Shown in pieces: positions 1 through 9,498 of a stretch of 64,000 nucleotides of DNA (positions are counted from its first letter, which is position 1; each line of letters opens with the position of its first letter). The notes beneath the pieces are model-generated. The model had not been told where the DNA came from and ran no database searches. It worked only from the letters and a program-made list of their open reading frames with translations. The DNA is from Gammaproteobacteria bacterium (GTDB lineage Bacteria; Pseudomonadota; Gammaproteobacteria; GCA-001735895): NCBI GenBank assembly GCA_026989015.1, contig JALSKD010000016.1:21710-85709 (forward strand). The letters are read 5' to 3'. Position numbers and translations under genes: made by a program.

Positions 1-1
1 G

Positions 2-115
2 CCAATGATGCAGAAGATGATGAAAAAACGCGACCGGCACTGGCAGCAGGTGGAGCAGCGACTGGCGAATATCGAGGCGTTGCTGCAGCAACTGGTCGAT
101 CTGCAGAAAAAATGA
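2..115 (+). CDS. 3' end of a coiled-coil protein (C-terminal fragment; gene begins upstream of window)
   Basis: Open frame 2 runs from the window edge to TGA at 113-115; the translation ...MMQKMMKKRDRHWQQVEQRLANIEALLQQLVDLQKK is heptad-like. Identity (ZapA/UbiK-like?) is not established. Confidence 0.3.
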   Translation, partial: PMMQKMMKKRDRHWQQVEQRLANIEALLQQLVDLQKK

Positions 116-210
116 TTCAGTCAATCCGCCGTTCGTTTCCTCGAGGCGAACGGCGGCGGGGGGCAGCGTCTGGAGGGGCGTTGTTCGTCGTCAGCAGTTG
201 ACCCTTCCGA

Positions 211-475
211 GGGAAGTTCTGACCCATTCGGGTATACCTCTGGCTCACAGGCGGGTTCGCTATCAAGGCGTGGCTGTGAAAGCAGGCTGGTTGCCTGGTG
301 AACAGCCGCAACGCAGAGAGCGGATTCGCCTGTGAGCCCCGCAGGGCGCGCCCTGAAGCACGCATCCACGGTGTTGCGCTTCTTGCCAAGGGCCGGGCCA
401 TTGGCGGCGAAGCGCGCCTTGTGGCTGCATGCTTCAGAGTGCGCAGAGGCATGCCCGAATGGGTCAGAGCTTCCC
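211..475 (+). ncRNA. Candidate structured non-coding RNA. The 5' and 3' ends form a ~32-bp closing stem, and there are nested internal hairpins. Alternatives: 6S-like RNA, a regulatory leader, or a MITE-like element.
   Basis: 211-242 (GGGAAGTTCTGACCCATTCGGGTATACCTCTG) is complementary to 444-475, with 2 G-U wobbles and 1 mismatch. There are internal inverted repeats: CTCACAGGCG (~244-253) with CGCCTGTGAG (~326-335), and the palindrome CAGGGCGCGCCCTG. A strong terminator follows immediately. The ORFs here (298..495, 332..649) cross the terminator and look non-coding. Confidence 0.3.
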
Positions 476-494
476 AGGTGTGTGTGCGGCCTTA

Positions 495-537
495 GGGGCG
501 CCTCTCGTCCACCCGGATGTCGGGCGCCCCTCTTTTT
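495..537 (+). terminator. Rho-independent terminator
   Basis: GGGGCGCC ... GGCGCCCC inverted repeat (8-bp GC stem) followed by TCTTTTT. Confidence 0.6.
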
Positions 538-632
538 AAGGACCCACCTTGAAGGGGTCACCGAAAAACAATGTACCCGCATGGTTTTTCGATGGTTCCT
601 GCAGATCGGTCAACCGACCGGGAGGAAAGAGA

Positions 633-875
633 ATGGGTATGGAAGGTGAAGGCATGGGCTTTGGATTCAGTTTCGGCTGGTTGTTCATGATCGGAATCTG
701 GGTGCTGATCGGCCTGGTGGTCATGGCCATGTTGCGCGCCTTTTCCGGGCCGCAAAAGGGCCCGGTCGATGAACGCAGGCGGGCACTCGACATACTCAAC
801 GAGCGCTATGCGCGCGGCGAAATCGATCAACAGGAATACCGGCGCATGAAACATGAAATCAATGAGCGTTACTGA
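633..875 (+). CDS. SHOCT-domain small membrane protein
   Basis: GGGAGGA RBS before the ATG at 633. One TM helix (FGFSFGWLFMIGIWVLIGLVVMAML), then a C-terminal SHOCT-like motif: ALDILNERYARGEIDQQEYRRMKHEI. Confidence 0.55.
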   Translation: MGMEGEGMGFGFSFGWLFMIGIWVLIGLVVMAMLRAFSGPQKGPVDERRRALDILNERYARGEIDQQEYRRMKHEINERY

Positions 876-881
876 ACGGAC

Positions 882-1214
882 ATGAAGACGAAAAAAAGGT
901 CTCTGACCCGTTACCTTGACATCAGAACAGAGCTGGATGATTCACGGGCGAAAGCCGTGTTGCAGGCATTGCGTGAACAGCTTGGAGTCGAGGAGGTGGA
1001 GTTGACCAAAAACCGGATGAGGCTCCGCTACGACCCCTTGCAGACCCGCATGGATCATCTGCAGGCGTTGCTCAAAGAACGGTCGGTAGAGCTTTCCCGC
1101 AGCTGGATTCATTCCTGCCGCCTGGCCTGGTACCAATATCAGGACGAAGCGGTCTGCGAGAACGCCGGTGCGCCGCCTCCTGCCTGCTGCAACAGGCCAC
1201 CGCGACCGCGCTGA
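882..1214 (+). CDS. HMA-like (ferredoxin-fold, heavy-metal-associated-like) protein with degenerate metal site and Cys-rich C-terminal tail
   Basis: ...VELTKNRMRLRYDPLQTRMDHLQALLKE... resembles an HMA domain, but the CxxC is replaced. The C-terminus is CRLAWYQYQDEAVCENAGAPPPACCN. It sits 6 nt after the SHOCT gene and overlaps the next gene. Confidence 0.4.
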   Translation: MKTKKRSLTRYLDIRTELDDSRAKAVLQALREQLGVEEVELTKNRMRLRYDPLQTRMDHLQALLKERSVELSRSWIHSCRLAWYQYQDEAVCENAGAPPPACCNRPPRPR

Positions 1215-1245
1215 CATGAACCCGGAAGCTCAAAAGGGGCAGGGT

Positions 1246-1941
1246 ATGACTACCGTGCTGTTGCCTCGCCTTGTTTTGGCCGTTCTGCTGCTGGTGCTGT
1301 TCTGGCTGTTGATCGGTCAGCGTATCGGTCATGACCTCCTCGCCGATCCGCAGGCATTGATCGACAACCTGAGGGGCAGCGGATGGCGGGGGCCGGCCGC
1401 GATCATCGGGTTGATGATGCTGGCCGTGGTGCTCAATCCGCTACCCAGCGCGCCCGTCGCACTGGCCGCCGGCGCACTCTATGGCCACGGCTGGGGCATG
1501 CTTTATGTCGTGATTGGAGCGACGCTGGGCGCTGTTCTGGCCTTTCTGATTGCGCGCCATGTGGCGGCCGACTGGGTGGAGTCGCGGCTCGGACGCTTTG
1601 CCACCTGGCAGCGCTGGAACGACCAGAACCGGCTGATGGTCGTGGTGCTGATTGCCCGGCTCTTGCCCTTTGTGTCCTTCGATCTCGCCAGCTATGCGGC
1701 CGGTGTGACCCGCTTGAGCCTGTGGCGATTCCTGCTGGCAACGGTGATCGGCCTGTTGCCGGGCAGTTTCTTGCTGGCCCATGTGGGCGGGGCGATGACG
1801 GCGGGCGACCGGGTGTTTGCCGGGCTGTCCGTTTTGGCTCTGGGCGTGCTGACCCTGCTGCCAGTAGCCTGGGGATGGTGGCGTCAGCGCCGTTTGCGGG
1901 TGCCGGGCGTCGATACTGAAATCAAGGTACACAAGTCATGA
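1246..1941 (+). CDS. TVP38/TMEM64 (DedA/SNARE-associated) family membrane protein
   Basis: Multi-TM translation with a typical DedA core (...GALYGHGWGMLYVVIGATLGAVLAFLIARH..., ...LLPFVSFDLASYAAGVTRLSLWRFLLATVIG...). RBS before the ATG at 1246. The stop overlaps the next start (ATGA). Confidence 0.7.
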   Translation: MTTVLLPRLVLAVLLLVLFWLLIGQRIGHDLLADPQALIDNLRGSGWRGPAAIIGLMMLAVVLNPLPSAPVALAAGALYGHGWGMLYVVIGATLGAVLAFLIARHVAADWVESRLGRFATWQRWNDQNRLMVVVLIARLLPFVSFDLASYAAGVTRLSLWRFLLATVIGLLPGSFLLAHVGGAMTAGDRVFAGLSVLALGVLTLLPVAWGWWRQRRLRVPGVDTEIKVHKS

Positions 1942-2342
1942 ACATGAGGATTCGATGGGTGATCGTGACGCTGCTGGCTGCGGGTCTGCTGAGCGGCTGT
2001 GAGCGTGGTGAACGGGCGGCCGGCGCCAATCCGCTGCATCTGCCACCGCCCGGTTTCGTGGGTGACGGGCGCAAGGGCGCTGTCGTCTATCGCCAGAATT
2101 GCCAGACCTGCCACGGCGCGGGTGCCGCCGGTACCGATCAGGGGCCATCACTGCTGCGCGACATCTACGCGCCCGGGCGTCACGCCAACCTGGCGTTTCA
2201 CCTGGCGGTCAAGAACGGGGTCAAGGCCCATCACGACAACAAGGGCGACATGCCTCCGCTGGAGGTTTCCCCCGAGGATGTCGAGCATGTGATCCAGTAT
2301 GTGCGCGAACTGCAGGTCAAGGCCGGGGTGTTCAGGCCGTGA
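1938..2342 (+). CDS. Monoheme c-type cytochrome, lipoprotein
   Basis: Lipobox LLSGC, then the heme-binding motif CQTCH. ATGA overlaps with both flanking genes. Confidence 0.75.
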   Translation: MNMRIRWVIVTLLAAGLLSGCERGERAAGANPLHLPPPGFVGDGRKGAVVYRQNCQTCHGAGAAGTDQGPSLLRDIYAPGRHANLAFHLAVKNGVKAHHDNKGDMPPLEVSPEDVEHVIQYVRELQVKAGVFRP

Positions 2343-3082
2343 TGGAATTGTCGCTGCTTGGCCTGTTCACGGCTTTCGGTGCCGGGGTGATTTCCTTTCT
2401 CTCACCCTGCGTGCTGCCACTGGTGCCGGGCTATGTCTCCTGGATCGGTGGTGTATCCGCACGAGGCAAGGGTCAGGGCCGCCGTCTGCGCGAACGCCTG
2501 TCCACCCTGTTGTTGAGTTTCAATTTCGTGCTCGGTTTCTCGACCGTGTTCATTGCCTTTGGCGCATCGGCCAGTTTCATCGGTCAATGGCTGGCGGCCT
2601 GGCGCGCCGAAATGAACACCGTCGGCGGCATCATCATCATCCTGTTCGGCCTGTTCATTTCCGGCCTGGTCCGTTTCGACTGGATGCAGCGCGACCGCCG
2701 CTATCACGGGCAACTGGCGGGCGGCCCGGGGCTGGCCGCCTACCTGCTCGGTCTGGCCTTCGCCTTCGGCTGGACCCCATGCATTGGCCCGATACTGGGC
2801 GCCATCCTGACCCTGAGCGCCACCACCTCCAGCTTGGTCAACGAGGGCACCACCCTGCTGGCGTTCTATTCGCTGGGGCTCGGACTTCCGTTCATGCTGG
2901 CGGCGCTGTTTACCGAGGGCTTCATTCGGCGCCTGCAGCGGCTCAAGACCCAGGGTCTGTGGCTGCAGCGCCTTGCCGGTGCGCTGATGATCCTGATGGG
3001 AATCGCCATGATCACCGGTTATCTGACCGATTTTTCAATATGGATCCTGAAAACCTTTCCCTGGCTGGGAACGCTGGGATAA
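2342..3082 (+). CDS. ccdA: Cytochrome c biogenesis / thiol-disulfide transmembrane electron transporter CcdA (DsbD core family)
   Basis: MELSLLGLFTAFGAGVISFLSPCVLPLVPGYVSW... and a second conserved Cys region ...GWTPCIGPILGAIL... in a 6-TM protein. Confidence 0.8.
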   Translation: MELSLLGLFTAFGAGVISFLSPCVLPLVPGYVSWIGGVSARGKGQGRRLRERLSTLLLSFNFVLGFSTVFIAFGASASFIGQWLAAWRAEMNTVGGIIIILFGLFISGLVRFDWMQRDRRYHGQLAGGPGLAAYLLGLAFAFGWTPCIGPILGAILTLSATTSSLVNEGTTLLAFYSLGLGLPFMLAALFTEGFIRRLQRLKTQGLWLQRLAGALMILMGIAMITGYLTDFSIWILKTFPWLGTLG

Positions 3083-3106
3083 CCCCGTACACAAGAGGAG
3101 AACACG

Positions 3107-4231
3107 ATGAAAACAGCAACGAGATTATTGAGCGCCACCGCCTTGCTGTGGCTGGCGGTGCAACCTCTGCAGGCGGCCGAGCGCTGGTACAGTGAGCAGC
3201 AGGTGAAAAAGGGCGCAGACCTGTTCGCGCAGAACTGCGCCTCCTGTCATGGTGCAAAGGGCGAGGGCACGAAAAACTGGAAAACCCCCGATGACAACGG
3301 CGTCTATCCGCCGCCCCCCATCAACGGCAAGGGCCATGCCTGGCATCATGACCTGGCCCTGCTGCGCGGCACGGTCAAAAACGGCGGCAAGCCGGTGGGC
3401 GGAACCATGCCGGCATTTGGGGACAGGCTGTCGAAGGAAGACATCGATGCGGTCATCGCCTATGTGCAATCACTCTGGCCGGAGGAGATTTACCAGCGCT
3501 GGGCCAGCCGCGGTGAACCCCGCGCCGACGCGCCCGACCAGCCGCAATCGCTGAGCGCCCAGCTGCAACCGGGCAAGCGCGCAGTGACCCGGCTGCTGGA
3601 ACAACGCCTGGGACAGCCGGTGCCACCGGCGGTGGAGACGCCGGTCAAGGGCATCTATCAGACCCGTCTGGGCGCCAATATCGGCTACCTCACCGAGGAC
3701 GGACGCTACATCTTCATGGGCCAACTGGTGGACCTGAAGACCGGCGCCAACCTGACCGAAACCGCCAAGCGCGCGGCGGTGACCGACAAACTGGCCGAGG
3801 TGGCGCAGAAGGACAAGGTGATCTATCCGGCCAGTGGCGAGGAGAAGGCCGTGCTGACCGTATTCACCGACACCACCTGCCCCTATTGCCGCAAGCTGCA
3901 CAAAGAGGTTCCGGAGTTGAACAAGGCCGGCATCAGCGTGCATTATCTGCCGTTTCCCCGTGGCGGTGCCGCCGGGCCCGGATACACTTCGCTGAAACAG
4001 GTATGGTGCGCCCAGGACCGCCGGAAAGCCATGAGCATCGCCAAGCAGCAGATGGCGGGCGACCTGCCCGATCCCGATTGCGCGGCCGCGGCAATGGTGG
4101 ACCGGGGATACCGTCTGGGCAATGAAGTGGGCGTCACCGGCACCCCGGCCCTGTTCAAGTCCAACGGCCAGAAGATCGAGGGCTATGTACCCTATCAGCA
4201 ACTGATTCCGATGGTATTGGGCAATTCATAG
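3107..4231 (+). CDS. Secreted fusion protein: N-terminal monoheme cytochrome c domain + C-terminal DsbC/DsbG-type thiol:disulfide interchange domain
   Basis: Signal peptide. CASCH heme motif near the N-terminus. C-terminal thioredoxin-fold with CPYC (TDTTCPYCRKLH) and DsbC/G-like flanking sequence (…ISVHYLPFP…GTPALF…). Confidence 0.75.
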   Translation: MKTATRLLSATALLWLAVQPLQAAERWYSEQQVKKGADLFAQNCASCHGAKGEGTKNWKTPDDNGVYPPPPINGKGHAWHHDLALLRGTVKNGGKPVGGTMPAFGDRLSKEDIDAVIAYVQSLWPEEIYQRWASRGEPRADAPDQPQSLSAQLQPGKRAVTRLLEQRLGQPVPPAVETPVKGIYQTRLGANIGYLTEDGRYIFMGQLVDLKTGANLTETAKRAAVTDKLAEVAQKDKVIYPASGEEKAVLTVFTDTTCPYCRKLHKEVPELNKAGISVHYLPFPRGGAAGPGYTSLKQVWCAQDRRKAMSIAKQQMAGDLPDPDCAAAAMVDRGYRLGNEVGVTGTPALFKSNGQKIEGYVPYQQLIPMVLGNS

Positions 4232-4298
4232 CGTATATCATGGATTGCTTATGTACAGTGACCGGTTATGATGCGTTTTTGACCCAGGAGTATTCCCG

Positions 4299-6509
4299 AT
4301 GAGTGAACCCATCCGCCTCTCCATCGCCGGCATGGCCTGTGCCGGCTGCGTCTCCGCCGTCGAGAACGCGCTGAAGGAAGTGCCCGGTGTCGAGGAAGCC
4401 ACGGTCAACCTGGGCGAGCGCACCGCCACGGTGACCGGAACCGCGGATGCCGATGCGTTGATCGCTGCAGTGAAAAAGGCCGGCTACGATGCCGCCGAAT
4501 TGCGCGGCCTGGAAGACGAGCAGGAAAAGGAAAACCTGGAGCTTCAGGAATACCGCAAGCTGTGGTGGCGCGCCCTCGTCGCAGGCGGCATCGGTGCCGC
4601 CATGTTCATCGGCGGCGCGCTGGGCCTGTTCCCGGAGATCGAGGAATCCCCGGGCTTCTGGATGTTCCTGAGTCTGGTGACGCTGGGCGTGCTCACCCTG
4701 GTCGGCGGACATTTTTTCAGGGGAGCACTGGCTTCGCTGCGCGCCGGGCGCGGCAACATGGATACTCTGGTGGCGCTGGGCACCGGCTCCGCCTGGCTCT
4801 ACTCCACCGTGGTGGTGCTGTTTCCCGACAGCCTGCCCAGCCTGGCGCGGCACGCCTATTTCGATGCCGCGGTCATCATCGTCGGCCTGGTATCGCTCGG
4901 CTCCGCGCTGGAAACCAAGGCACGGGGCAAGACCTCCGAAGCCATCAAGCACCTGATCGGCCTGCAACCGGCCACCGCCCGCGTCATCCGCAACGGCGAG
5001 GAGATCGACCTGCCGGTGGAGGAAATCGGCCTCGAGGAAACCATTCGCATCCGTCCCGGCGAACGCATCCCGGTGGACGGCGAAATCTTCGAGGGCGAAT
5101 CCCATGTGGACGAGTCCATGCTTACCGGCGAACCCATGCCGGTCTCCAAGAAAGTGGGTGATGCGGTCTACAGCGGCACCCTGAACACCTCCGGCAGCTT
5201 TCTGATGAAGGCCACCAAGATCGGCAAGGACACCGCGCTCGCCCACATCATCGAGCTGGTGCGCCAGGCCCAGTCCAGCAAGCCGCAAATCGGCCGCCTG
5301 GTGGACAAGGTGGCCGCCATCTTCGTGCCGGTGGTGGTGACCATTGCCGTCATCAGCTTCATCGTCTGGTACCTCTGGGGTCCCGAACCCAGCCTTGCCT
5401 ACGCCATGGTCTCGGCCATGACCGTGCTGGTCATCGCCTGCCCCTGCGCGCTCGGCCTGGCCACCCCCATCTCGATCATGGTCGGCGTCGGCCGTGCCGC
5501 CGAGATGGGTGTACTGATCCGCAATGGCGAAGCCCTGCAAAGCGCCAGCCAGCTCGGCACCATCGTGGTGGACAAGACCGGCACCGTTACCGAAGGCCGC
5601 CCACGGCTGACCACGCTGCTGCCGCAGCCCGGCTTCGACGAGAGCGAAGCCCTGCAGCGCGCCGCCGCGCTGGAAACCGGCTCCGAACACCCGTTGGCCG
5701 CCTCCATACTCGAAGCGGCGCGTGAGCGGGGTATCGAGGCCACGGCGGTCGAAGGGTTCCGGGCCGTCTCCGGCTTCGGCGTCGAGGGCGAACGCGACGG
5801 CCACCGCCTGATCCTCGGCAACGCACGGTTCATGAAGCAGCAGGCCGTTGATCTGGGTGACAGCGAAGCCCGCGCCGAGCAGCTGGCCGCATCCGGCGAA
5901 ACCCCCATCTACCTCGCCGAGGATGGCCGGCTGGTCGCCCTGCTGGGCATCTCCGATCCGCCACGGGAAGACTCGAAACAGGCCATCGAACGCCTGCACC
6001 GCCTGGGACTCACCGTCATCATGCTCACCGGCGACAACGCCCGCACCGCGCGCGCCATCGCCGACCGCGTCGGCATCGACGAAGTCATCGCCGAAGTATT
6101 GCCCGAAGACAAGACCGGCAAGATCACCGAACTGCAGGCCCGCGGCCGCAAGGTGGCGATGGTCGGCGACGGCATCAACGACGCCCCGGCGCTGGCCCAG
6201 GCCAATGTCGGCATCGCCGTCGGCAGCGGCGCCGATGTGGCCATCGAATCCGCCGACATCGCGCTGATGCGCAACTCCCTCAACGGCGTAGCCGACGCCA
6301 TCGCCCTGTCGCGTGCCACCCTGCGCAACATCAAGCAGAACCTGTTCGGCGCCTTCATCTACAATGTGCTCGGCATCCCCGTCGCCGCCGGCGTGCTCTA
6401 CCCCTTCTACGGCATCCTGCTCAGCCCCATCATCGCCGCCGCCGCCATGAGCATGAGCTCGGTCACCGTCGTCACCAACGCCCTGCGCCTGCGCAAGCAG
6501 CGTCTGTGA
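4299..6509 (+). CDS. copA: Copper-translocating P1B-type ATPase
   Basis: N-terminal HMA with GMACAGC; the CPC transmembrane motif; DKTGT phosphorylation site; GDGINDAP. Confidence 0.9.
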
Positions 6510-6624
6510 ACCGGTCCCGGGCGTGGCTTGTCCCGCCCGGATGCCCGGTCGGTGAACCCGGTCACGCACGATGCCGGGCAATGCCTTATCATCGCGGTTT
6601 TACGCAGCTCAAGGGACCATCGCG

Positions 6625-7515
6625 ATGCGCAATGTGCTGACCATCGATGTCGAGGACTACTTTCAGGTGGCTTCGCTGGCCGAACGCATCCGGCCGGAGG
6701 ACTGGGACGGAATAGCGCCGCGGGTGGAGGACAATGTGCGCCGCCTGCTGGATCTGTTCGACCGTCATCAGGTGAAGGCGACCCATTTCGTGCTCGGCTG
6801 GATCGCCGAGCGCTTTCCGCAGCTGATCCGCGAAATCGACGCGCGCGGACACGAGATCGCCAGCCACGGCTACAGCCACCAGCTGATCTACAGCCAGACG
6901 CCGGAGGTGTTCGCGCGCGAGACGCGGGATTCCAAGGCCCTCTTGGAAGACATCACCGGCAAGCCGGTGGAAGGCTACCGCGCCGCCAGCTATTCGATCA
7001 CCCGCAAGTCGCTGTGGGCGCTGGATATCCTCGCCGAGGCGGGGTTCATCTACGATTCAAGCATCTTTCCAGTGGTGCATGACCGCTACGGCATCAAGGG
7101 TTCACCGGAGCGGCCGCACCGTCTGCGCACGCCGCAGGGGCATTCGCTGGTGGAGTTTCCGTTGTCCACCTACCGCCTGTTGGGGCAGACCCTGCCGGTG
7201 GCCGGAGGCGGGTATTTCCGCCTCTACCCCTATGCGCTGAGCCGCCATTTCTACCGTGCGCTGAACCGTGCCCGCACGCCCTTCGTGTTCTATCTGCATC
7301 CCTGGGAGATCGATCCGGCTCAGCCGCGTGTGGACGGCCTGAGCCGTTTGTCCCGCTTCCGCCATTACAATAATCTGGACGATTGCGAACGCCGCCTCGA
7401 CCGCTTGCTGTCGGAGTTCGATTTCGAGCCGATGAAGCCGCATCTGCAGCGGCTGGGGATGTTCGACGATGCTCTGCCGCCAAAGGCGGATTACGGTGTT
7501 GAGCGGGCTGCCTGA
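6625..7515 (+). CDS. Polysaccharide deacetylase family protein (DUF3473 / PEP-CTERM-locus-type subfamily)
   Basis: MRNVLTIDVEDYFQV... NodB-like start and ...ASHGYSHQLIY...; the C-terminal DUF3473-like region is conserved. Confidence 0.7.
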   Translation: MRNVLTIDVEDYFQVASLAERIRPEDWDGIAPRVEDNVRRLLDLFDRHQVKATHFVLGWIAERFPQLIREIDARGHEIASHGYSHQLIYSQTPEVFARETRDSKALLEDITGKPVEGYRAASYSITRKSLWALDILAEAGFIYDSSIFPVVHDRYGIKGSPERPHRLRTPQGHSLVEFPLSTYRLLGQTLPVAGGGYFRLYPYALSRHFYRALNRARTPFVFYLHPWEIDPAQPRVDGLSRLSRFRHYNNLDDCERRLDRLLSEFDFEPMKPHLQRLGMFDDALPPKADYGVERAA

Positions 7516-7530
7516 AGACGGCTGAGGCGC

Positions 7531-8364
7531 TCAGCGCAGGGAGAAGGTGAGGTTGGCCCAGTGGCTCTGCCACTCGGCGTTCGGGTCCAGGCTGTCGCTG
7601 GAGTAGGGGAGGATCTTGACCGCCTTGAGCATCCAGTCACCGGCGCGGTCGAGGGTGATGCTCACCCGGCCTTCGGCATCCGTCCGCGCCTGCTGTTTTT
7701 CCTCCGGTGCGCCGCGAGTGAAGGCGATCAGCAGCAGGTCCTCGGCCGGCTTTCCCCGGTAGAGCAGCCGCACCGTCAGACGGTCACCGGGCTTGAGGCG
7801 GCAGGGGTTGACTTCGGGGACGATCTCCAGGGTCTGGCCGACGGCCAGGGTGGAGGCATCCAGGGTGAAGGCATCACCGGCCTGCACCAGGGCCTTGCTG
7901 TGGCGCTGGTAGCGCTCCAGCCCGCGCCGGTTTTCCTCTCCGCGTTCGCGACGCAGCGCGAGGGCATTGTCCAACCCTTCCATGATCAGGTACTTGCGGA
8001 AGGTTTGCGGGTCGATATCGACGAAGCTGAAGGTGCTCTGGTAGGTGACCAGCCAGGTGCCGGGGCGGTCGGGGATGAAACGGCCGGCCGGGTCGTCGCC
8101 CAGCGCGCCGGGCATGGGGCGTGATTCGCCGGGCAGGTGCAGCGAGAAGTCTTCGTACCAGTTGCGGATGTTGGGCAGGCTGTCGCCGACGAAGTCGGCG
8201 CCCACATGGATCGAAACATCGACAGGCTGTCCCACCGGCGTATAAAATGGATGCGCCTCGAGCCAGAAGTCGTGGGCCTGTGCCGTTGCGGCCCATGCGA
8301 TGGCGACCAGCCCCCATCTTGCCACACCCGTTATTCCCCGGAAAATCCCATGCGCCCTGTTCAT
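7531..8364 (-). CDS. DUF4198 family periplasmic protein (nickel/cobalt-uptake-associated family)
   Basis: Signal peptide, then ...AHDFWLEAHPFYTPVGQPVDVSIHVGADF.... The ATG at 8364 would overlap the divergent gene start; an in-frame GTG at ~8325 is an alternative start. The upper part of the long minus ORF (to 9384) is antisense noise. Confidence 0.55.
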   Translation of the reverse strand: MNRAHGIFRGITGVARWGLVAIAWAATAQAHDFWLEAHPFYTPVGQPVDVSIHVGADFVGDSLPNIRNWYEDFSLHLPGESRPMPGALGDDPAGRFIPDRPGTWLVTYQSTFSFVDIDPQTFRKYLIMEGLDNALALRRERGEENRRGLERYQRHSKALVQAGDAFTLDASTLAVGQTLEIVPEVNPCRLKPGDRLTVRLLYRGKPAEDLLLIAFTRGAPEEKQQARTDAEGRVSITLDRAGDWMLKAVKILPYSSDSLDPNAEWQSHWANLTFSLR

Positions 8365-9498
8365 CTGTTCGTTGTATTCCTCTGTCTTGTCGGCCTTGCC
8401 GGACCGTTGGCGGCGCATCAGCTGCGGCCTGCGCTGGCGACAGTATCCTTTGAGCCCGGCGGAACGGTCAAGCTGCGCATCCAGACCAATGCGGAGGCCC
8501 TGCTGGCCGGCATCGACCCGAAGCACCGCAATACCAACGATTCCCCAAGAGCCGGCGAGTACAACCATCTGCGCGGGCTGCCGCCCGAGGCCATCGCGCA
8601 GGCCTTTGCCGGGTTCGCCGAGCGCTATGCGGAGGGGCTGCGGCTGGAGGCGGACAGCGGTGATGGGCAATGGCGGCTGCTGGAATGGCGCTATCGGGGC
8701 ATCGAAGTGCCGCCGGTGGGCGATACCCGGTTGTCGCGCAAGTCGCTGATCCGTTATCAGGGGATTCTGCCGGAGGGTGCGGCCCGCGTGCGCTGGTCCT
8801 ATGCCGCCGACTATGGGGATTCGGTCATCAGCTTCACCCAGCCGGGCCAGCAAGAGCCGGTCAGCTACTGGCTCACCGGCGGGGAACCCAGCCCGGAATA
8901 TGCGCTCGACCGGGTCGTGCAACCCCGTGCCTGGACCGCGGTGGCGGCCGATTATCTGCAGCTGGGTTTCGTCCACATCCTGCCCCGTGGGCTGGATCAC
9001 ATCCTGTTTGTGCTGGGGCTGTTCCTGCTGTCGCGCCGACTCAAGCCGCTGCTGTGGCAGGTGACGGCCTTCACCGTCGCCCACAGCATCACCCTGGCGC
9101 TGTCCATTTACGGCTATATCGACCTGCCATCGACCGTGGTCGAGCCGGCGATCGCCCTGTCCATTGCCTATGTCGGGATCGAAAACATCCTCACCCGCCA
9201 GCTCCACGCCTGGCGGGTGGTCATCGTGTTCCTGTTCGGCCTGTTGCACGGCATGGGCTTTGCCGGGGTGCTGACCGAGCTGGGCCTGCCGGAAAACGAA
9301 TTCGTCACCGCGCTGGTTTCCTTCAACATCGGTGTCGAATTCGGCCAGCTTGCGGTCATCAGCCTGGCCTGGCTCGCGGTGCACCGCATCATGCGTGACG
9401 AGGCGCGCTATCGCCGCTGGGTGGTGGTTCCCGGTTCCCTCGGAATTGCCGTCATGGGCCTGTACTGGACCGTCGAGCGGCTGGGCTGGCTGGGGTGA
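8350..9498 (+). CDS. HupE/UreJ_2-family metal (Ni/Co-type) transporter with large N-terminal periplasmic domain
   Basis: Signal peptide MRPVHLFVVFLCLVGLAGPLAA; C-terminal TM domain with the signature ...FVHILPRGLDHILFVLGLFLL... and ...GLLHGMGFAG.... Confidence 0.6.
   Translation: MRPVHLFVVFLCLVGLAGPLAAHQLRPALATVSFEPGGTVKLRIQTNAEALLAGIDPKHRNTNDSPRAGEYNHLRGLPPEAIAQAFAGFAERYAEGLRLEADSGDGQWRLLEWRYRGIEVPPVGDTRLSRKSLIRYQGILPEGAARVRWSYAADYGDSVISFTQPGQQEPVSYWLTGGEPSPEYALDRVVQPRAWTAVAADYLQLGFVHILPRGLDHILFVLGLFLLSRRLKPLLWQVTAFTVAHSITLALSIYGYIDLPSTVVEPAIALSIAYVGIENILTRQLHAWRVVIVFLFGLLHGMGFAGVLTELGLPENEFVTALVSFNIGVEFGQLAVISLAWLAVHRIMRDEARYRRWVVVPGSLGIAVMGLYWTVERLGWLG

Follow-up and report, generated by a model that had tools for sequence, protein, structure and literature searches.

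Why should the gene for a Cu(I)-exporting ATPase stand at the end of a row of genes for two c-type cytochrome modules, a thiol-disulfide electron transporter, and a disulfide isomerase? The question is raised by positions 633 to 6509 of the window, by which we mean the whole 64,000-nucleotide (64-kb) stretch of contig JALSKD010000016.1 (assembly GCA_026989015.1, from a gammaproteobacterium) that was analyzed here. This part of the window carries seven co-directional open reading frames (ORFs), g1 to g7, on the plus strand (Table 1). We lean, with modest confidence, toward reading them as a copper-stress operon in which CopA (g7) would export Cu(I), while a DsbC domain (in g6) fed by CcdA (g5) would repair copper-damaged periplasmic thiols.

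The gaps between the genes, in order from g1 to g7, are 6, 1, −4, −1, 24, and 67 nt, and the ORF coordinates and these measured gaps confirm the preliminary description of seven plus-strand genes spaced by −4 to 67 nt. The same description had counted three ATGA overlaps, whereas only one is present, at the g3/g4 junction; the g4/g5 junction is TGATG, with a 1-nt overlap, and the g2/g3 junction is TGAcATG, with a 1-nt gap. All three junctions are nonetheless of the translational-coupling type, and the inference of coupling survives. A terminator scan found no terminator-like site in the gaps between g1 and g7; nine such sites were found overall, every one inside genes, against 5.3 ± 2.4 in shuffled sequences. 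This tight co-directional packing and the lack of intergenic terminators speak for the copper-stress operon, whose genes are probably co-transcribed and presumably induced by copper. A consensus scan of positions 1 to 7600 found no sigma-70 promoter. In the gap between g6 and g7, a TATGAT box (TATCAT in locus L013) occupies a similar position, a few tens of nucleotides upstream of the copA ATG, in the window and in loci L001, L012, L013, and L014, with small palindromes just upstream of it. Because this box is conserved, copA may also have an additional internal promoter of its own.

Table 1. Features of the copper locus and its upstream region, with positions in the 64-kb window
Feature	Position	Strand	Characteristics
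g1, small membrane protein	633..875	+	Pfam SHOCT, 38 bits (cutoff 27), residues 51-76
g2, cytoplasmic HMA-fold protein	882..1214	+	Without MxCxxC loop; invariant C-terminal tail AWYQYQDEAVCENAGAPPPACCNRPP
g3, DedA/TVP38-type membrane protein	1216..1941	+	VTT domain, Pfam, 87.4 bits (cutoff 33.9)
g4, small lipoprotein class I cytochrome c	1938..2342	+	Pfam Cytochrom_C / Cytochrome_CBB3
g5, CcdA (DsbD beta-domain-only thiol-disulfide electron transporter)	2342..3082	+	Pfam DsbD_TM (PF02683), 60.1 bits (cutoff 27.1)
g6, secreted cytochrome c-DsbC fusion	3107..4231	+	Pfam Cytochrom_C + DsbC_N + Thioredoxin_2
g7, Cu(I)-exporting P1B-1-type ATPase (CopA)	4299..6509	+	Pfam HMA (one, N-terminal) + E1-E2_ATPase + Hydrolase
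Candidate internal copA promoter (putative)	4245..4272	+	TTGCTT, 16 nt, TATGAT, in the 67-nt g6-g7 gap
Met/Gln-rich periplasmic protein, C-terminal end	1..115	+	Frame 2, ending in ...MMQKMMKKRDRHWQQVEQRLANIEALLQQLVDLQKK and a stop codon
Conserved intergenic element, 5' half	138..218	+	Hairpin after the stop codon, then hairpin GGCAGCGTCTGGAGGGGCGTTG
MITE-like insertion, ~265 nt	211..475		22-bp terminal inverted repeats; splits the conserved intergenic element
Conserved intergenic element, 3' half	467..541	+	CCAGGTGTGTGTGCGGCCTTA, then terminator-like hairpin GGGGCGCC...GGCGCCCC, TCTTTTT

The domains assigned earlier to the seven products all hold, by Pfam and NCBIfam models and, for g2, by an AlphaFold model searched with Foldseek. 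The product of g6 joins a class I cytochrome c domain (CASCH, M101, and HAWHH), a linker, a DsbC dimerization domain, and a thioredoxin domain, the last with CPYC at residue 258 and the cis-proline T346-P347, both invariant in the alignment. CASCH, the invariant M101, and a signal-like N-terminal segment are those of a secreted class I cytochrome, for which heme is predicted. In the AlphaFold 2 model, which has a predicted local distance difference test (pLDDT) score of 80 as a whole, the linker (about residues 136 to 155) is disordered, with pLDDT below 50. DsbC_N scored 50.7 bits and Thioredoxin_2 64.8 bits, and residues 177 to 366 matched E. coli DsbC (1EEJ) with an E value of 1e-33 in a phmmer search of the PDB. 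Foldseek ranked DsbC structures (template modeling [TM] score, 0.74 to 0.76; 30 to 32% identity) above DsbG and ScsC; the resemblance to ScsC amounts to 18 to 20% identity and TM scores of 0.5 to 0.66, and g6 has DsbC_N instead. On the other hand, g6 scored 132.8 bits against the DsbC equivalog NF008129 (cutoff, 215), its active site reads CPYC, the motif that DsbG and ScsC carry (PMC10907172), rather than the canonical CGYC of DsbC, and it has an extra 135-aa cytochrome domain. The C-terminal part of g6 is a true DsbC homologue with a DsbG-like CPYC; identification of g6 as ScsC or DsbG was rejected on domain content, sequence, and structure ranking.

Across 25 g6 sequences (51 to 82% identity), CxxCH, the Met ligand, HAWHH, CPYC, the cis-proline, and the structural cysteines are invariant, and 1862 database matches have the same architecture. 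The fusion is a large uncharacterized family. In a tblastn search of 72,556 plasmids, no record reached 80% coverage of the fusion, which is therefore not a known plasmid gene. A longer form (458 to 516 aa) occurs in L052 (6310 to 7689), in L053, and as proteins P0007, P0015, and P0020; the L052 protein (459 aa), the one long form examined, has two DsbC_N stretches by Pfam. Besides, L052, L061, L081, and L101 have a protein of about 268 aa, with a beta-rich N terminus and a cop-type cytochrome (EHAWHH), between g4 and CcdA.

The neighbors of the fusion that would supply electrons and export copper are intact. g5 has both PC cysteines (SPCVLP and TPCIGP) and six to eight hydrophobic segments, as expected of CcdA. 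At 246 aa, it consists of the transmembrane domain only, with no alpha or gamma domain, and it scored 38 bits against the NCBIfam DsbD model (cutoff, 330), the transmembrane part alone being covered; ScsB and DsbD were rejected as identities on this domain content. g7 scored 632.7 bits against TIGR01511 (cutoff, 397) and 642.8 bits against TIGR01525 (cutoff, 346), as a P1B-1 ATPase does, and its motifs are complete: GMACAGC (residue 12), CPC (381), DKTGT (425), YN (688, transmembrane helix 7), and MSMSS (717, transmembrane helix 8). Its score with PRK10671 (CopA) was 941, below the cutoff of 1316, with the match starting at profile position 104 of 838. The presence of every P1B-1 motif in g7 and of both catalytic cysteines in g5 would favor the copper-stress reading, as would the DsbC match and the invariant residues of g6.

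We further examined whether the linkage is kept in relatives, since scattered genes would have spoken against a joint unit. The context evidence comes from metagenome contigs fetched with two peptide patterns, whose flanks are often short; a genome-collection scan with a single-sequence query returned close relatives only. The same gene order was found in at least six related contigs (L001, L003, L012, L013, L014, and L015), with protein identities ranging from 44 to 98%. Among them, L003 is a contig of a metagenome-assembled genome of Thiohalobacter sp. (Thiohalobacterales, Gammaproteobacteria) that is 98% identical over g6, whereas g2 is just 44 to 58% identical among the loci keeping the order. 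The window itself probably stems from Thiohalobacter or a close relative. Every g2 locus examined has SHOCT-g2-(DedA)-cytochrome c-CcdA, followed by the fusion and CopA where the contig reaches. Judging from this shared order, the arrangement is beyond chance, and the view of a tightly packed unit closing with a Cu(I) P-type ATPase was borne out: g7 is such an ATPase, and the unit is conserved.

A second order was found in L101, a locus represented by 19 contigs and reached via a 66%-identical CcdA homologue, with a Tn3-family transposase gene downstream. It reads multicopper oxidase (MCO), CopB, cytochrome c, Met-rich protein, g2-family protein (APPPSCCNRPP tail), DedA, g4-like cytochrome, a 269-aa protein with a second cop-type cytochrome domain, CcdA, fusion, and SHOCT. 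Thus, the six accessory families (SHOCT, HMA-fold/CC tail, DedA, lipoprotein cytochrome c, CcdA, and fusion) recur there reordered. Because they are found together in two gene orders, the linkage is functional rather than accidental, and the recurrence is strong evidence for a functional module. We therefore give very little credence to the idea that a housekeeping DsbC variant and assorted small genes merely accreted beside copA and have no joint function. Signs of mobility lie nearby (the miniature inverted-repeat transposable element [MITE] in the window, IS1595 in L052, and Tn3 in L101), the presence of DedA is variable, and the fusion also occurs in housekeeping contexts, all as such a mosaic would have it. 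However, stop and start codons in the window overlap or nearly abut, the six families are found together, in one order or the other, across lineages with protein identities of only 45 to 66%, and distant relatives of g2 and SHOCT are also paired.

How specific the module is to copper can be judged from the wider family of the fusion, for which the metagenome scan returned more than 560 loci; about 47 with a near-full-length fusion were assessed. The commonest neighbor of the fusion is a g4-like cytochrome, present in the retrieved flank of about half of these loci and mostly immediately adjacent to the fusion or parted from it by CcdA alone. Copper genes (MCO, CopB, Cu-ATPase, Met-rich, and SHOCT) were in the retrieved flank of about 40%. 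About a quarter have the fusion after a DUF938 methyltransferase gene in housekeeping surroundings (ftsK, lolA, and rarA), and some g4-fusion pairs have TlpA-like or TamB neighbors and no copper genes. The proposal that the module is dedicated to copper stress was therefore too strong, because the fusion, often with a small cytochrome, is also found in non-copper housekeeping contexts. In L050, L051, L055, and L056, a plain DsbC without cytochrome occupies the DUF938 position, from which it follows that the fusion arose within the DsbC lineage.

The cytochrome modules have relatives in known copper clusters. g4 has the lipobox LSGC, CQTCH, and the methionine ligand of GDMP, and is thus a class I c-type cytochrome in which heme is predicted; its family keeps extra histidines (HH..D and HHW.FGDMP are conserved), and it is 35% identical to the g6 heme domain. 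The latter is 43 to 51% identical to "cytochrome c" genes in plasmid cop clusters of Cupriavidus and Arcobacter, which adjoin P-type ATPase (copF)/DUF411 and copABCD genes, and 50 to 57% identical to stand-alone cytochromes that come after MCO-CopB in metagenome loci. We take the Cupriavidus plasmid cytochrome to be CopJ in the pMOL30 nomenclature. The homology would favor the copper-stress reading; it also shows that the cytochrome modules, which the preliminary description saw as added to an Scs-like pair, are no novelty in copper loci. The classical cop-cluster cytochromes, such as those of Cupriavidus plasmids, resemble the g6 heme domain and belong to the same kind of copper island; they differ in that the g6 cytochrome forms one polypeptide with a complete DsbC and has a second, lipoprotein cytochrome and CcdA as partners. 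The Xanthomonas copLABMGCDF operon encodes another cop-cluster cytochrome, CopM (PMC11651105), which we liken to g6 by description only. CopJ of R. gelatinosus was not equated with the g6 heme domain, since only a 14-kDa copper-induced CxxC protein has been described (PMC4600104).

The fusion of a heme domain to DsbC and the very frequent pairing of g4 and g6 imply cooperation between the hemes and between heme and thioredoxin domain, and they raise the question of which way electrons flow. Electrons might pass from Cu(I) at a CPYC/His-rich site, or from the DsbC dithiol, to the tethered heme and onward through g4 to the respiratory chain (terminal oxidase or reductase), while CcdA would only reset or re-reduce the site; in that case the module would act either as a periplasmic cuprous oxidase that needs no O2 or as a disulfide catalyst coupled to the respiratory chain. 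By textbook values, transfer from a dithiol to a His/Met heme is thermodynamically downhill. Extra histidines near the heme are conserved (HAWHH, invariant in g6, and HH..D and HHW.FGDMP in g4), and the homologous stand-alone cytochromes follow a multicopper oxidase and CopB. In addition, PMC8900818 describes tight binding of Cu(I) by ScsC, that is, by a CPYC site of the ScsC type. Even so, we consider such a relay quite improbable: it is inferential throughout, the adjacent CcdA suggests that the site is meant to stay reduced, and the island already codes for a multicopper oxidase that oxidizes Cu(I).

CcdA also has a canonical role in supplying reductant for heme attachment, and the module could accordingly guard c-type cytochrome assembly rather than periplasmic proteins in general, with the DsbC part mainly keeping the CXXCH cysteines of its own and other apocytochromes reduced during copper export. 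CcdA homologues at 60 to 66% identity stand beside g4-type cytochromes in L101 and L103. L103 (5542 to 7238, Sedimenticola sp.) has the arrangement cytochrome c-CcdA-cytochrome c with no DsbC domain, beside a two-component system, DUF302, and a YHS/HMBD Cu-ATPase, from which it would seem that CcdA and cytochromes were linked before the fusion with DsbC arose. In copper-context loci, CcdA is never without at least one cytochrome gene, the joining of reductase and cytochrome in one protein could permit action in cis, and c-type cytochrome assembly is specifically damaged by copper (PMC4600104). We nevertheless regard this maturation role as unlikely to be the principal one, because the known thiol partner in maturation is a monomeric membrane-anchored thioredoxin of the CcmG/ResA/TlpA type and not a predicted dimeric DsbC whose dimerization domain is intact, the fusion is widespread without an adjacent CcdA, and the plain DsbC at the DUF938 position points to a general DsbC function.

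Returning to the copper-stress operon, we envisage that CopA would pump cytoplasmic Cu(I) to the periplasm, where copper would mis-oxidize and bind cysteines. CcdA would relay reducing equivalents from cytoplasmic thioredoxin to the CPYC of the dimeric g6 DsbC domain, which would reduce or isomerize copper-induced wrong disulfides by the logic of ScsB/ScsC and DsbD/DsbG/DsbE. Together with g4, the g6 heme, flexibly tethered to DsbC, may form a short periplasmic electron wire of the classical cop-cluster kind; the wire might shift copper, or its adducts with thiols, to another redox state in or close to the active site of DsbC and might connect to the respiratory cytochrome pool. The SHOCT protein and g2 would be a translationally coupled pair, probably binding copper on the cytoplasmic side of the membrane, and DedA would be an optional membrane-support component. 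Of this scheme, the sequences themselves show the gene structure, the intact domains and motifs, the linkage in two orders, and the homology between the heme domain and cop-cluster cytochromes; the remaining steps and roles are inferred. A raised need for DsbC, Scs, and dsbDEG under copper is reported in PMC10907172, 10.1101/2020.08.17.255257, and PMC4600104 (citing Hiniker 2005).

Several points weigh against this reading. The fusion, with or without g4, occurs in copper-free contexts over flanks of up to 8 kb, so that the core pair cannot be called specific to copper; only a minority of loci have CcdA next to the fusion; and the operon contains no copper regulator gene. The arrangement in L103, with CcdA between cytochromes and no DsbC, fits a role of CcdA in cytochrome maturation at least equally well. 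Furthermore, a His/Met class I heme is expected to be far more oxidizing than a DsbC-type dithiol, a comparison resting on textbook potentials, and heme and CcdA would therefore pull the CPYC in opposite directions. Finally, the way in which the contigs were fetched makes the locus sample a biased one.

The operon begins with genes for two small proteins. g1 has a Met/Gly-rich N-terminal tail (MGMEGEGMGFGF), one transmembrane helix (residues 16 to 34), and a basic C-terminal SHOCT tail, and GGAGG lies 8 nt ahead of its ATG. It adjoins g2 in L001, L003, and L012 to L015, and SHOCT genes are present in the copper islands of L100 and L101 too, the Arcobacter copper island included. Our literature search found no mechanistic work on SHOCT and copper, or on DedA and copper.

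g2 matched no Pfam or NCBIfam model. Its AlphaFold 2 model (pLDDT, 86) had CopZ, MerP, and ATPase metal-binding domains as top Foldseek matches, with TM scores up to 0.88 to 0.89 and root mean square deviations of 1.1 to 1.6 Å (0.88 and 1.2 Å for the HMA/CopZ match); among the matches listed, nearly all were HMA, CopZ, or ATPase metal-binding domains. Thus, g2 has the ferredoxin-like beta-alpha-beta-beta-alpha-beta fold of HMA, although the alignment shows no cysteine in the beta1-alpha1 loop and the protein falls below the Pfam HMA threshold; its distant relatives reach 21 to 24.6 bits only (cutoff, 24.8). The earlier call of a degenerate HMA protein was right, since the model matches HMA/CopZ domains and yet the MxCxxC loop is missing. 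The conserved cysteines (C79, C92, and C102-C103) are instead in the C-terminal helix and tail. CopZ/HMA metallochaperones share the fold and are likewise encoded with a Cu(I) ATPase; g2 differs from them in the missing canonical loop, the C-terminal position of its cysteines, its subthreshold score, and the N-terminal YHS/TRASH domain that some of its relatives bear.

A word-indexed search placed g2 in nine clusters, and it is thus rare and a good marker, whereas a profile search recovered a wider family of 461 representative clusters, which has no Pfam or NCBIfam model. Common to this family are the HMA-like core, a YD motif, and the C-terminal tail W..Y.DE..REN..APP.ACCN.PP, in which CC is nearly invariant. 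Distant members are found after MCO-CopB (L083), near Cu-ATPases (L087), and beside a SHOCT gene (L018), and their placement in copper loci would favor the copper-stress reading. One branch of 160 to 170 aa (L016, 1543 to 2034; P0132; P0146) has an N-terminal YHS/TRASH-like metal-binding domain and can stand alone in a non-copper context.

g3 scored 22.5 and 17.8 bits against the UptA equivalogs (cutoffs, 250 and 300), and its identification as the undecaprenyl-phosphate flippase UptA was rejected at the equivalog level. DedA is present in L001, L003, L015, L019, L020, L052, and L101; it is dispensable, to judge from its absence or degradation in L012, L013, and L014, of which L013 retains a remnant. 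Another association of DedA with thiol redox proteins was seen in L010 (7453 to 9582), where VTT/DedA and a pyridine-nucleotide-disulfide oxidoreductase (Pyr_redox_2 + Pyr_redox_dim) are fused in a 709-aa protein; a housekeeping copy of the cytochrome c-DsbC fusion is encoded about 5 kb away.

The locus extends upstream of position 633. The Met/Gln-rich end with which the window opens matches the C termini of 156-aa Met-rich proteins in L012 and L013, and in L003, L013, and L015 a cluster of multicopper-oxidase copA, copB, and Met-rich genes lies immediately upstream of the SHOCT gene. Because the window opens within the Met-rich gene and relatives have this MCO-copB order, the seven genes are the ATPase arm of a larger composite copper island.

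Between the Met-rich and SHOCT genes lies a regulatory-looking element of about 140 nt that is about 90% conserved, whereas the flanking proteins are merely 45 to 60% identical. It is unbroken in L003 (4103 to 4242), L012 (8542 to 8700), L013 (8530 to 8669), and L015 (8519 to 8659) and consists of a hairpin of variable sequence, whose pairing is kept in these four loci, a second hairpin, the invariant single-stranded CCCTCCAAGTGTGTGTGCGGCCTTA, and a GC-rich hairpin followed by TCTTTTT. In the window, nhmmer matched the 5' half at 140 to 207, in agreement with alignment and folds, and the 3' half at 467 to 541; the 23-mer GTGTGTGCGGCCTTRGGGGCGCC has exact matches in the same four loci only. Scans of positions 1 to 7000 of the window and of these loci found no Rfam family for the element, and an nhmmer search of about 100 loci turned up no additional copy. 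Possible roles are those of an attenuator, a small RNA derived from the 3' untranslated region, or an operator. A CueR/MerR-type arrangement of −35 box, dyad, and −10 box around TTGACC in the element, considered by eye, had no acceptable −10 box, and this reading was dropped. The insertion that splits the element in the window carries GGGAAGTTCTGACCCATTCGGG at 211 to 232 (plus strand) and 454 to 475 (minus strand) with one mismatch, a match expected 0 times by chance. It is present in a single copy in the window and is missing from the 98%-identical Thiohalobacter contig.

Downstream of copA are a polysaccharide deacetylase/DUF3473 gene (6571 to 7515, plus strand), a DUF4198-like gene (within 7531 to 9384, minus strand), and a HupE/UreJ_2 gene (within 8137 to 9498, plus strand), and the same three genes trail copA in L013. 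A 771-aa antisense ORF (4266 to 6581, minus strand) spans the whole of copA; it is without supporting evidence and most likely a high-GC artifact, and copA is clearly coding. A phmmer search found no paralogues of the query proteins elsewhere in the window.

Of the systems to which the locus can be compared, Scs (ScsABCD of Salmonella, Proteus, and Caulobacter) is likewise a copper-linked envelope system in which a membrane transporter feeds a periplasmic CPYC isomerase/reductase of thioredoxin fold, guarding against copper (PMC10907172, PMC3322552, and PMC5524982). The preliminary likening to Scs stands insofar as the CcdA/DsbC pair mirrors copper thiol repair and fails in the components, g6 being a DsbC homologue and not ScsC-like and g5 a bare CcdA without the periplasmic domains of ScsB/DsbD. 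Indeed, ScsC is far less similar to the catalytic part of g6 than DsbC is, the present module lies within a copA ATPase operon and includes two c-type cytochrome modules, SHOCT, an HMA-fold protein, and DedA, and no scsA or scsD (TlpA-like) ORF was found in 633 to 6509. The dsbDEG genes of the P. aeruginosa DsbRS regulon form a copper-induced reductive disulfide pathway with a dimeric DsbC/G-type effector (10.1101/2020.08.17.255257), and the E. coli DsbD-DsbC pathway is needed under copper stress (Hiniker 2005, as cited in PMC4600104). In our locus, in contrast, CcdA replaces DsbD, there is neither DsbE/CcmG nor an adjacent two-component regulator, and the isomerase bears an N-terminal cytochrome c and is joined to a Cu(I) ATPase operon. 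CcdA-ResA/CcsX (System II) and SoxV-SoxS/W also pass electrons from a bare CcdA-type transporter to a periplasmic thioredoxin-fold protein serving c-type cytochromes, whereas in our locus the predicted partner is of the DsbC type, soluble and dimeric, rather than a monomeric anchored thioredoxin, in a copper-resistance context rather than among ccs/res or sox genes. Copper-linked periplasmic thiol repair as a principle and the presence of cytochromes in cop clusters are already known. As to the combination, the earlier remark that it does not correspond to a described system agrees with our literature search, which found no paper on a cytochrome c-DsbC fusion or on this module.

Copper kills bacteria largely via periplasmic thiols and cytochrome assembly, and to our knowledge the Scs, dsbDEG, and DsbC defenses have been studied mainly in enterics and Pseudomonas. 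The locus described here represents a different, conserved solution in marine and sulfur-oxidizing Gammaproteobacteria. A bare CcdA is paired there with a cytochrome-bearing DsbC, and the set further includes another cytochrome, a SHOCT membrane protein, and an HMA-fold/CC-tail family that lacks annotation. Two families of considerable size that have so far gone unannotated also come to light, namely, the fusion (1862 matches) and the g2 family (461 clusters). The main value of the fusion is that of a "Rosetta stone": it predicts that the c-type cytochromes of cop operons cooperate with DsbC-type oxidoreductases, a link that renders the function of cop-cluster cytochromes directly testable. 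If true, a heme-wired relay would explain these long-unexplained cytochromes.

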